DNA of 32,000 nt from an uncultured Nitrososphaerota archaeon (GTDB lineage: Archaea > Korarchaeota > Korarchaeia > Korarchaeales > Korarchaeaceae): positions 32,945 through 64,944 of the forward strand of contig CAYZRF010000010.1 of the NCBI GenBank assembly GCA_964480775.1, written 5' to 3'. Under the pieces are notes generated by a model. The model searched no databases. It was not told the origin of the DNA and worked only from the letters and a program-made list of their open reading frames with translations. The position numbers and the translations under genes are program-made. Below, in pieces: positions 1,730 to 3,505 of the stretch (position 1 is its first letter; each line of letters starts with the position of its first letter).

Positions 1730-3505
1730 GTGAAAAGGGTCTTTTCAGCTGCTCTGGCTTTTGTATTTCTATCTTTAGTGGTTATCTCTGGAGTTGTTTA
1801 TCAGGTATCTTGCCAAGAAGTTACGATTGAGAAGATCATGGTTTGGGTTGTCTTGAAGTCTGACGGCACAATGGAGGTCGAATACAATCTTACTTTCCTA
1901 GAACATAGTTCTCGGGATAGAATAAGGAAGTTAGGCCCTTTTGAAGAAGGCCACAGCATAAAGAGCGCTTTCATAGTTCACGATTCAGATGTTCGTGCAG
2001 TAGAACTCTCTGAGATTGAAGATGGGCTCTACTCCGTGTTATTTGGTTATAAAACTACGTCTGGAGAGCAGTACACTGTGAGCATTAAGTACAGCATAGA
2101 TAGGCCGGTAGTAACAGAGCAAGAGATGTTCGGGGAGCCATACTCTATATTCGCCTGGGCTCCTTTCCAATGGAGTTTACCTGTGAATAACGAGACTGTC
2201 ATGATAGTGATGCCAGTTGAACTTCCTTCAGATGTAACTAAGCCTGAGCAAATAACTCAAGAGCTTATAGACTCCTTAGGAATAGGCTATGGAGATCTCA
2301 CTGATTACAGGTGGTCATTCTATCCGACTGTTGATGAGACCACTGGTAAGAGCTGGCTTTCCATCTACTTATCTAAAACCAGCTTGGAGCCATACTATCA
2401 CTTTGTGATTGAACTCTACATTCCAAGCAAGTACTTCACTTTAGGTCCCTCTCCAACATTTCCGCCCCCAGTATCCCCGACAGTAACGCCTCCTGGTTTG
2501 ATTGCCTCGTACGGCTGGGTAATAATAGCAATATCGGCTCTCATAATGTTTGGATCCTTTCTTGCGTATGTAAGAGGAAGAGAAAGGAGAAGAAGGGTTC
2601 CAAGATATGAAGCACCAGAGATAGAGATAGAAACCTTCGAAGTTCCCGAGAAAGTTGCAGATCTTGACCCTGCAGAGGCAGCCATGCTCGTATCGTCTGC
2701 TGATAAAGTCATAGCTCTTATAGCTCTTAGCTTGATGGAAAGGGGCATCATACAGATGACTTCGGTTAAACCACCAAAATATTCGATTAATGACCGAGAA
2801 TTGGAGAAGAGAAGAAAAGAGCTGAAGAAATACGAGTTAAAGTTCATAGAAGCCATTAGAGATGATGGTTCAATTGATGAAGAGGAACTCAGATTGATTT
2901 TGAAGGAGGTTGCATACAGCCTTAACGAAAAGGCGTGGGATGCAGATATAGAGAAAACTAGAGAGAGATACAAGGAACTAGTTGAAGAAAAATGGAAAGA
3001 GCTTGAGGATCGACCTAGGGCTCAAGAAAAAGTTGATTACTGGAATGATAACTGGCCTTGGCTTATAATTCACACAAATTCGCATAGAAGAGCTAGAGAC
3101 GTTTTCGTACCAACAACCCCAGGAGAAAAAGTTAGAATAAAACCAAAGCCCGACAGGAGACCTTTTCCAGTAGTGACCCCCGTTGAGAGAGGTGCGAGAA
3201 CAATCGTGGTCGGGATAGAAGACTTCGCCAATAGGGTAGTTAGCACAATAGAATCCATAAGCAAGAACGTTGTTGAGGGTCTAGAGAAGGTCGCTGAAAA
3301 AACGGTCGAATCGGTTGAAAAGGCTGGAGTAAAAGAAGCTTGTTACTCGGCATGTGTAGAACATGATGCTTGTCATTCCGCATGTGTTCACGATGCTTGC
3401 CACAGTGCGTGCGTTCACGACGCTTGTCATTCGGCTTGCCACAGTGCCTGTCACTCTGCGTGTCATTCAGCTTGTCACTCTGCCTGTGTGTCAGGCTTTG
3501 AGTGA
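1730..3505 (+). CDS. DUF2207-like single-pass membrane protein with a cytoplasmic C-terminal Cys/His repeat tail
   Basis: GTG start. It has a signal-like N-terminus ([21 protein letters not shown]). The ectodomain begins with a pattern typical of DUF2207 N-domains ([26 protein letters not shown]). A P/T linker ([17 protein letters not shown]) leads to a TM helix at about 2498-2572, followed by [11 protein letters not shown] (positive-inside). The cytoplasmic segment [33 protein letters not shown] resembles the DUF2207 C-terminal module. The last ~55 aa are a Cys/His repeat. Confidence 0.8.
   Translation: [591 protein letters not shown]
3338..3490 (+). repeat. In-frame 12-nt (ACHS) and 27-nt (ACHSACVHD) periodic coding repeat
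   Basis: Translation: [52 protein letters not shown], with 12 Cys (each preceded by Ala) and 10 His. The five consecutive ACHS units use different synonymous codons (Ser tcg/agt/tct/tca/tct, Ala gct/gct/gcc/gcg/gct). Confidence 0.9.

Follow-up and report, generated by a model that had tools for sequence, protein, structure and literature searches.

A membrane protein of an uncultured Nitrososphaerota archaeon ends in a ladder of regularly spaced Ala-Cys units, rich in His, that is real and strongly conserved. The protein, called here the tail protein, is encoded in a stretch of 32,000 nucleotides (contig CAYZRF010000010.1 of assembly GCA_964480775.1, positions 32,945 to 64,944), hereafter the window, in an operon with an enzyme of the radical S-adenosylmethionine (SAM) type. 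On balance, sequence and gene context make it probable that the ladder is a built-in substrate ('core peptide') of this enzyme, a PqqD-radical SAM-SPASM maturase, and that it is modified in cis, on the cytoplasmic side of the membrane.

The Cys-His ladder and its conservation

The tail-protein gene occupies positions 1730..3505 of the window (+ strand), running from a GTG start codon, at the position where orthologs have ATG, to a TGA stop codon, and encodes a single-pass membrane protein of 591 residues. The ladder, the proposed maturase substrate, corresponds to residues 537-588 (3338..3493, +). Translation of the reading frame gave 12 Ala-Cys units and 10 His, arranged as seven ACHS units, two ACVHD units and several edge variants, which are the unit counts given in a first-pass annotation made from the letters of the window. 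That annotation had counted 10 His, and 12 Cys that all follow an Ala, in 49 residues at 3338-3490; the composition proved correct, but the stretch is 51 residues long and the ladder ends at 3493. The final unit is ACVS, ending at that position, and is followed by GFE and the stop codon (3494..3505, +). Proteins of this family always end four to six residues past the last Cys. The tail contains 12 of the 13 Cys and 10 of the 16 His in the whole protein. No other stop-free window of 51 residues in the six frames of the 32 kb contained more than six Cys, and the background composition of the window was 0.9% Cys and 1.7% His.

The five consecutive ACHS units at 3422..3481 are encoded by five distinct 12-mers, and the Ser codons of the ladder alternate between AGT and TCN, in agreement with the scrambling of synonymous codons that had been claimed earlier. 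Identical 12-mers were found in two non-adjacent units (3395 and 3434), and the only array that Tandem Repeats Finder reported was a weak one with a 12-nt period (5.5 copies, 70% matches). Compared in pairs, the seven ACHS units had a mean nucleotide identity of 0.730, against 0.725 ± 0.031 for independent codon draws from the codon usage of the genome. Because the identity of the units is that expected from random codons, they are at synonymous equilibrium and show no trace of recent slippage or homogenization. Two open reading frames (ORFs) of 61 and 62 aa cross the repeat in other frames (3281..3466, -; 3363..3551, +); these are most likely by-products of the periodic codons, not genes.

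Full-length orthologs were obtained by a genome scan from metagenome-assembled genomes of uncultured TACK archaea (loci and proteins are cited here by L and P numbers, respectively). They were 84% (L002), 80% (L003) and 48% (L004, Bathyarchaeia) identical to the window protein, and all three had a tail of the same length and register as that of the window, without insertions or deletions. The L002 and L003 tails matched the window ladder at all 52 residues, while the L004 ladder had three changes (A>S, D>S, and H>Y), with another (G>S) just past the ladder. Tail identity was 100% where the remainder of the protein was at 78-84% identity, and 94% where the remainder was at 46-48%. The nucleotide identity of the tails among these orthologs was 70-77%, and the synonymous difference (pS) was 0.86-1.1, which is saturated. 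The identical ladder was found again at loci L091 and L092. Given tail identity of 94-100% with saturated synonymous sites, the ladder is the most constrained part of the protein. These results bear out the earlier suggestion that the periodicity is kept by selection on the peptide; hypervariable or frame-shifted tails were looked for among the orthologs, and both register and length were constant.

Distribution of the family and its tail types

Word-indexed protein searches with the tail protein or the family profile returned only two or three matches, with low-complexity words swamping the candidates. The family was found by an exhaustive phmmer search against 1.84 billion representatives, together with DNA-pattern scans. 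The phmmer search identified 310 relatives of the tail protein at E ≤ 1e-3, and 141 at E ≤ 1e-10, from both bacteria and archaea. Every representative with an intact C-terminus carried a Cys ladder at its end, and each ladder was one of three types: ACHS/ACHD, CVCACVSCACACA, and GGGCACACACAGCACACAGGGR. Tails of the first type are made up of ACHS, ACHD and ACVHD units and end in ACVS-GG-x-H, ACVSSF or ACVSGF. There were 89 unique tails of this type, with 2-18 Cys (median 10); the Cys-Cys spacing was four in 676 of 767 intervals, and Ala preceded Cys in 93% of cases. The second type has the form S-CVCACVSCACACACVSCACACA-(S/G)GG, usually with 10 Cys, and the third the form GGG-CACACACAGCACACA-GGGR, usually with 7 Cys. 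Two of these three types contain no His.

The members of the family share an architecture in which a signal peptide or anchor, a beta-rich ectodomain, one transmembrane helix and about 250 helical, predicted cytoplasmic residues precede the ladder, and the median length is ~551 aa. Among 112 non-identical full-length members, the last ~20 residues were the best-conserved stretch (0.76), and residues 296-335 came next. Two longer members had the same ACHS tail (L014, 9875..12514, 880 aa; L022, 3071..6262, 1064 aa), indicating that extra N-terminal domains can be fused to the module while the tail is unchanged. In P0008, which has 18 Cys in its tail, ACHS units switch to CDSSCDSCHSSCDSCHSS, and the P0087 tail has ACVHD, ACVSRPHS and HSAHSAHSAC units; the repeat dialect can therefore drift inside the ACHS type.

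Proteins of the DUF2207/TIGR04222 group (e.g., S. mutans SMU.243, PMC10457818) resemble the tail protein in having a signal peptide or anchor, a beta-rich ectodomain, a transmembrane segment, a cytoplasmic region and a low-complexity C-terminal tail, and weak Pfam or NCBIfam similarity was detected in both halves of the tail protein. The scores were below the thresholds for PF09972 (DUF2207 N-terminal; 18.8 bits, gathering threshold 24.4), for PF20990 (DUF2207_C; 24.3 bits, gathering threshold 33) and for TIGR04222 (24.9 bits, cut-off 43; E = 1.4e-5, residues 268-399), and the TIGR04222 match indicates distant homology only. Unlike DUF2207 proteins, which have a multi-pass C-terminal half and a Gly-rich tail, members of the tail family have one transmembrane helix after the ectodomain and no additional ones, a Cys ladder in place of the Gly-rich tail, and a radical SAM/SPASM partner in place of LemA. 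A bona fide DUF2207 protein, P0153, has several transmembrane segments, a GGGFGGGG tail and a LemA neighbor. The first-pass annotation had viewed the ladder as a lineage-specific replacement of such a tail. The Gly-rich end of P0153 agrees with one part of this view, but the ladder defines a large family of bacteria and archaea, and from these comparisons it is the signature of a separate, widespread, cross-domain branch rather than of a single lineage.

It was also considered whether the ladder might be a functionless product of DNA-repeat slippage, as the detectable, weak 12-nt tandem periodicity could suggest, or a string of heme c motifs, given that ACHSACH fits CX3CH and ACVHDACH fits CX4CH. 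Such explanations are very improbable, and both were rejected. A slippage or low-complexity artifact is contradicted by the synonymous equilibrium (0.730 vs 0.725), the lack of length variation, the 94-100% identity of orthologs with saturated synonymous divergence, and the family-wide conservation. The heme c reading is contradicted by the overlap of the motifs, the sister tails without His, and the predicted cytoplasmic location of the tail, as cytochrome c maturation acts outside the membrane. Furthermore, no recurrent heme lyase or Ccm genes were found when the neighbors of the loci were clustered.

Linkage to a radical SAM enzyme

The left end of the window lies within the gene for the partner enzyme. 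Frame 1 is open from base 1 to a stop codon at 534, and these last 177 codons of the PqqD-radical SAM-SPASM maturase (1..534, +) cover the SPASM region only, as the gene continues past the left edge of the window. The fragment scored 367 bits against the full-length ortholog at L003 (7368..8810), which has PqqD, Radical_SAM and SPASM domains. At L002, L003 and L005, a complete enzyme gene encoding 471-480 aa is followed by an overlapping gene for a coiled-coil protein of ~400 aa (CC400) and then by the tail-protein gene, and in the window clade the reading frames of the maturase, CC400 and the tail protein overlap or abut, forming an operon.

Eighty metagenomic loci with Cys-ladder proteins were taken, and all of their six-frame ORFs were searched with two enzymes; this sample was selected by the tail motif itself. 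A radical SAM homolog was found in 76 of 87 Cys-ladder loci, always on the same strand. Linkage was obligatory in loci with at least 1.6 kb of flanking sequence on both sides, all 40 of which contained the enzyme gene (next to the tail gene in 35 loci, within 3 kb of it in 4, and 7.4 kb away in 1), and in each of the 11 loci without a match the flank on one or both sides was shorter than 1 kb. In Anaerolineales loci the tail proteins are only 22% identical to that of the window, and the CACACA-tail gene is followed, 28 nt on, by the radical SAM gene; between the Anaerolineales and window-clade enzymes, identity is 35% across 402 aa (E = 9e-81). The association was also found in the reverse direction. 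A search with the enzyme profile returned 2106 database proteins at E ≤ 1e-30, all generically annotated, and the three enzyme homologs whose contexts were examined (P0203, from a complete 5.35-Mb Anaerolineales genome, P0250, and P0162) were each encoded beside a Cys-ladder protein.

The enzymes have diversified together with the tails. In the enzyme tree, every nearest neighbor (55 of 55) was linked to a tail of the matching type, and the ACHS-linked enzymes were monophyletic (37 of 37). The archaeal maturases of the window clade (L002/L003) nest among enzymes with ACVSSF tails (L009, L011, L013, L015, and L024), and one ACVSSF locus, L088, is found in a complete Anaerolineales genome. Together these two observations suggest that the whole module was transferred between domains. 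The public labels of the close archaeal relatives conflict with each other, and include Thermoproteota, Bathyarchaeia, Nitrososphaerota and Korarchaeota.

Features of the enzyme

The catalytic motifs of the enzyme family are intact. The CX3CX2C radical SAM motif was present in all 56 full-length partners, for example as CQNRCVFC in L002 and L003 (this part of the gene is outside the window), and the Radical_SAM and SPASM domains were present in all 25 partners sampled. The SPASM domain encoded within 1..534 of the window scored 41.9 bits with PF13186 (threshold 21.5, E = 1.2e-10) and 48.2 bits with TIGR04085 (threshold 27, E = 1.1e-12). The L003 ortholog has a PqqD-like recognition element (RRE) of the kind found in pathways that make peptides synthesized ribosomally and modified post-translationally (RiPPs) (PF05402, 35.5 bits, threshold 23.4), and among the 120 best database homologs of the enzyme, most have a precomputed PqqD match. 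The best NCBIfam scores of the enzyme were to the generic AhbD, NirJ2 and PqqE models, with a weak match to TIGR03906 and TIGR03942, the models for QhpD and the anaerobic sulfatase-maturating enzymes (anSME). Among solved structures, the closest to the partner-enzyme profile was SkfB (3.5e-40), followed by PqqE, SuiB and CteB. SkfB is a sactionine synthase, which forms a Cys-Cα thioether.

Domain structure and topology of the tail protein

Residues 1-28 (1730..1813, +) form an N-terminal signal peptide or membrane anchor with a hydropathy peak of 2.5. The extracytoplasmic domain that follows (residues 29-257; 1814..2500, +) is beta-rich and DUF2207-N-like (PF09972, E = 0.002, sub-threshold), with a Pro-rich linker at its end, and in a full-length AlphaFold2 (AF2) model this ectodomain has beta strands with predicted local distance difference test (pLDDT) values of ~60-78. 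The single transmembrane helix (residues 258-281; 2501..2572, +; hydropathy 2.25) is preceded by 15 residues without any Lys or Arg and followed by 15 residues that include seven. Under the positive-inside rule, this asymmetry places the C-terminal part of the protein in the cytoplasm, and the ladder is thus predicted to be located in the compartment where radical SAM enzymes work. The helical region between the membrane and the ladder (residues 282-536; 2573..3337, +), also predicted to be cytoplasmic, includes two blocks whose conservation was measured across 112 family members. The juxtamembrane block at 296-335 (PEIEIETF...EAAMLV...VIALIALSL) had conservation of 0.62-0.76, and an amphipathic segment at ~492-521, just upstream of the ladder, had conservation of 0.40-0.49. 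The latter segment is a candidate recognition ('leader-like') element.

No solved structure related to the tail protein was found. The full-length AF2 model, which was built from a three-sequence alignment, had a mean pLDDT of 43 and is unreliable in the tail (29-44). A single-sequence AF2 model of residues 485-591 was helical, with a pLDDT of 82 overall and 65-85 in the tail, and is given little weight. The first-pass annotation had suggested that helical i/i+4 spacing would place the thiols on one face. The helical single-sequence model lends this idea little support, and i/i+4 geometry is not the conserved feature, because the sister tails, which are homologous and have homologous enzymes, are spaced C-x-C, an arrangement that does not bring the thiols to a single side of a helix.

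Proposed maturation of the ladder

The gene linkage, the co-diversification, the peptide-recognition domain, the predicted cytoplasmic tail and the conservation at the level of register all fit the reading of the ladder as a built-in substrate. In the proposed mechanism, the N-terminal PqqD-like domain of the enzyme would dock on the tail protein, possibly at the amphipathic segment upstream of the ladder, and the radical SAM site would go through repeated rounds of reaction along the Ala-Cys units. Judged from the nearest characterized enzymes, Cys-derived thioether cross-links are the likeliest chemistry, in which case one Cys-sulfur-to-carbon thioether (of the sactionine or ranthionine type) would be formed per unit, and we infer that the invariant Ala may be the cross-link acceptor. 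The modified tail would presumably remain on the membrane protein rather than being released as a natural product. Clustering of the neighbors of the loci revealed no recurrent protease, peptidase or exporter, including exporters of the ATP-binding cassette (ABC) type, which argues against a released peptide product. A poly-thiol substrate was among the alternatives listed in the first-pass annotation, and it is now better supported, as the tail is genetically tied to a PqqD-radical SAM-SPASM enzyme.

Several points weigh against this proposal. Gene linkage indicates a functional connection, not an enzyme-substrate relation, and all of the functions discussed here are read from sequence and gene context. 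The topology was derived only from hydropathy and the positive-inside rule. The RiPP substrates known so far are short and carry an N-terminal leader, and to our knowledge the only precedents for a 590-aa membrane protein as a substrate are QhpC and the sulfatases. At E ≤ 1e-3, Pfam recognized PqqD in no more than 9 of the 25 partners, and not in every subclade. None of the 25 partners approached a curated NCBIfam maturase family (best score ~140 bits, cut-offs 380-500), and the chemistry of the enzyme is therefore not transferable by homology. Thioether chemistry would, in addition, leave the His-rich composition of the ACHS tail unexplained.

That composition raises the possibility, the main suggestion of the first-pass annotation, that the tail is a metal-binding module tethered to the membrane, either metallothionein-like or a His/Cys site for soft metals (Zn, Ni, Cu, or Fe) or an Fe-S cluster, which serves in storage, buffering, sensing or delivery with the radical SAM enzyme as its client or partner. 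There are 12 Cys and 10 His in 52 residues, the sister tails have C-x-C runs similar to metallothionein motifs, thiols would stay reduced at the predicted cytoplasmic location, and the helical model of the isolated segment gives Cys/His stripes. Radical SAM/SPASM enzymes need three Fe-S clusters, and an adjacent donor of clusters or iron is conceivable. Metal binding as the primary role is nevertheless considered unlikely. Two of the three homologous tail types lack His and have kept the same partner, and the near-invariant Ala, the fixed ACVS-GG or CACAGGGR ends, and the 52 of 52 identity of orthologs exceed the usual needs of chelation. The PqqD/RRE domain points to peptide binding, and the obligatory enzyme and the strict register would be left unexplained; no metal transporter or metal chaperone was recurrent in the neighbor clustering. 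The near-invariant Ala-Cys and the fixed C-terminal end look more like a constraint of recognition or register than one of generic metal chelation. Metal binding and modification are compatible, and a modified tail could bind metal through its His residues.

Linkage by itself also cannot distinguish a substrate from a partner. The Cys-ladder protein might act as a membrane anchor, or as an electron or sulfur relay through Cys that carry persulfide or Fe-S, and bring to the membrane an enzyme whose substrate is a lipid, a small molecule or another protein. This would be consistent with the generic similarity of the enzyme to SPASM enzymes that act on non-peptide substrates, AhbD/NirJ and the tetraether lipid synthase Tes/GDGT-MAS, and with the recurrence of genes for membrane proteins, F332 and F119 (described below), in the cluster. 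However, the similarities to AhbD, NirJ and Tes are far below the cut-offs, and the best relatives in the Protein Data Bank modify peptides. PqqD is a peptide-recognition element, no other candidate gene for a small precursor was recurrent in the neighbor clustering, and the enzymes and tail types have diversified together as expected of a recognition pair. A role as partner and not substrate therefore appears distinctly improbable.

Comparison with known systems

Radical SAM-SPASM enzymes install thioethers on Cys-rich peptides, this being their usual reaction with Cys-rich substrates, and QhpD and anSME act on whole proteins (PMC10114670). The QhpD/QhpC and anSME systems are similar to the one proposed here in that a radical SAM-SPASM enzyme modifies a Cys-containing protein that stays functional, and QhpD makes Cys thioethers within a protein (PMC10114670). 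The differences are that QhpC is a small soluble subunit with three to four cross-links to Asp or Glu, that anSME forms formylglycine within a sulfatase motif, and that the QhpC and sulfatase substrates have no ladder of repeats and no membrane anchor.

The sactipeptide and ranthipeptide synthases SkfB, AlbA, CteB and PapB combine an RRE/PqqD domain with radical SAM and SPASM/twitch domains, and have Cys-rich substrates. PapB-type systems, from the work on freyrasin, reportedly form one thioether per short repeated motif. In contrast to the present system, these synthases modify peptides built of a leader and a core, whose bacteriocin-like products are exported, and are accompanied by protease and transporter genes. 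The genes found together here are those of the tail protein, the radical SAM enzyme, and F332, F119 or CC400, rather than a leader-core precursor with protease and exporter genes, and the enzyme did not approach the cut-offs of the sactipeptide or ranthipeptide synthase families.

Periodic Cys repeats encoded beside a radical SAM/SPASM gene are also a feature of the CXXX-repeat radical SAM targets and Cys-rich RiPPs (TIGR04117, TIGR04118, and TIGR04135) and of the ACGX system (maturase TIGR04340), which were compared by NCBIfam names and scores. CHSA is a CXXX unit and AC-x-x resembles ACGX, and the function of these systems is likewise only predicted. Their targets are short stand-alone peptides (model lengths 46-98), however, rather than the C-terminal tail of a membrane protein of ~590 aa. 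The tail scored 7.7-13.8 bits against TIGR04117 (cut-off 50) and the enzyme scored 90.7 bits against TIGR04340 (cut-off 400), and by these scores the systems are alike in concept without belonging to one family. Metallothioneins and the His/Cys-rich tails of metallochaperones likewise have an extreme density of Cys (and here also of His), and C-x-C runs like those of the sister tails, but the ladder differs in its strict four-residue register with an invariant Ala, its obligatory radical SAM partner and its membrane tether.

No mention of the ACHS motif or of a link between DUF2207 and radical SAM enzymes was found in the searchable literature, and no curated family was found that covers the tail protein and its radical SAM enzyme; uncurated resources may already group these enzymes. 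While the concept of a periodic Cys repeat beside a radical SAM gene is already known, this is probably a widespread, undescribed, cross-domain radical SAM/SPASM system that targets a membrane protein at its C-terminal tail.

Other genes in the cluster and the window

CC400 is encoded at 506..1723 (+), overlapping the maturase stop codon and ending 6 nt before the start of the tail-protein gene; its own start codon is uncertain. A family search with CC400 gave only coiled-coil noise, with no real family match. Homologs were found in 11 ACHS-type loci, including the window, and were always on the same strand within the cluster. F332, a membrane protein of ~330 aa, was found in 22 ACHS loci. F119, a protein of ~120 aa with a transmembrane segment, a CxxC...CxxC zinc ribbon and a near-invariant EEPKW end, was found in 20 loci of the C-x-C types (for example L006, 9558..9953; L050, 1279..1695; and L046, L054, and L056). 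No known domain was found in the accessory genes of the cluster. Some of the CACACA loci had a second gene with PqqD and Radical_SAM-like regions, encoding ~375-390 aa without CX3CX2C (L006, 14130..15257; L007, 14101..15228; L079, 4.1 kb downstream of the tail gene), which looks like a pseudo-radical SAM gene. In L006 and L007, a 333-aa protein without a known domain is encoded between the active enzyme and this second gene.

A convergent ABC importer operon is located downstream of the tail gene in the window (3538..8170, -), and encodes a TOBE-domain ATPase (3538..4608, -), a double permease fused into one chain of 634 aa (4719..6623, -), and a solute-binding protein (6758..8170, -). The stop codon of the ATPase gene is only 32 nt from that of the tail gene. 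The importer is syntenic in the close relatives L003, L091 and L092 and not elsewhere in the family; it was rejected as a part of the system on the basis of this restriction to a close clade, and is probably unrelated. L004 has a second, unrelated radical SAM gene (CNFRCMFC; 3287..4342, -) that is convergent to the tail gene and outside the conserved module. Also unrelated to the ladder is a DNA-repair fusion of an MGMT-type DNA-binding domain (PF01035) with Endonuclease V (PF04493), encoded at 17274..18212 (+) of the window.

Significance

Radical SAM/SPASM enzymes have been mined mainly for small secreted peptides, whereas a large clade of them appears to target the tail of a membrane protein, a kind of target that peptide-centered genome mining would miss. 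If this is true, QhpD/QhpC and the sulfatase maturases would be joined by another maturation system that works on proteins, and a DUF2207-like family of unknown function would gain a first functional handle. The system would also provide a repetitive substrate with 12 equivalent sites, easily assayed, for investigating how such enzymes choose between thioether and other chemistries, and the three tail dialects with their co-diverged enzymes amount to a natural specificity-swap experiment. A more tentative possibility is that this is an unrecognized class of modification, in which a radical SAM/SPASM enzyme turns the Ala-Cys ladder of a full-length membrane protein into a cross-linked structure, poly-thioether or otherwise derived from Cys, that acts as a tethered cofactor, a metal or redox site, or a rigid signaling element. 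If so, the system would be kept from Chloroflexota to TACK archaea in three dialects, with a RiPP-like core that is never released.

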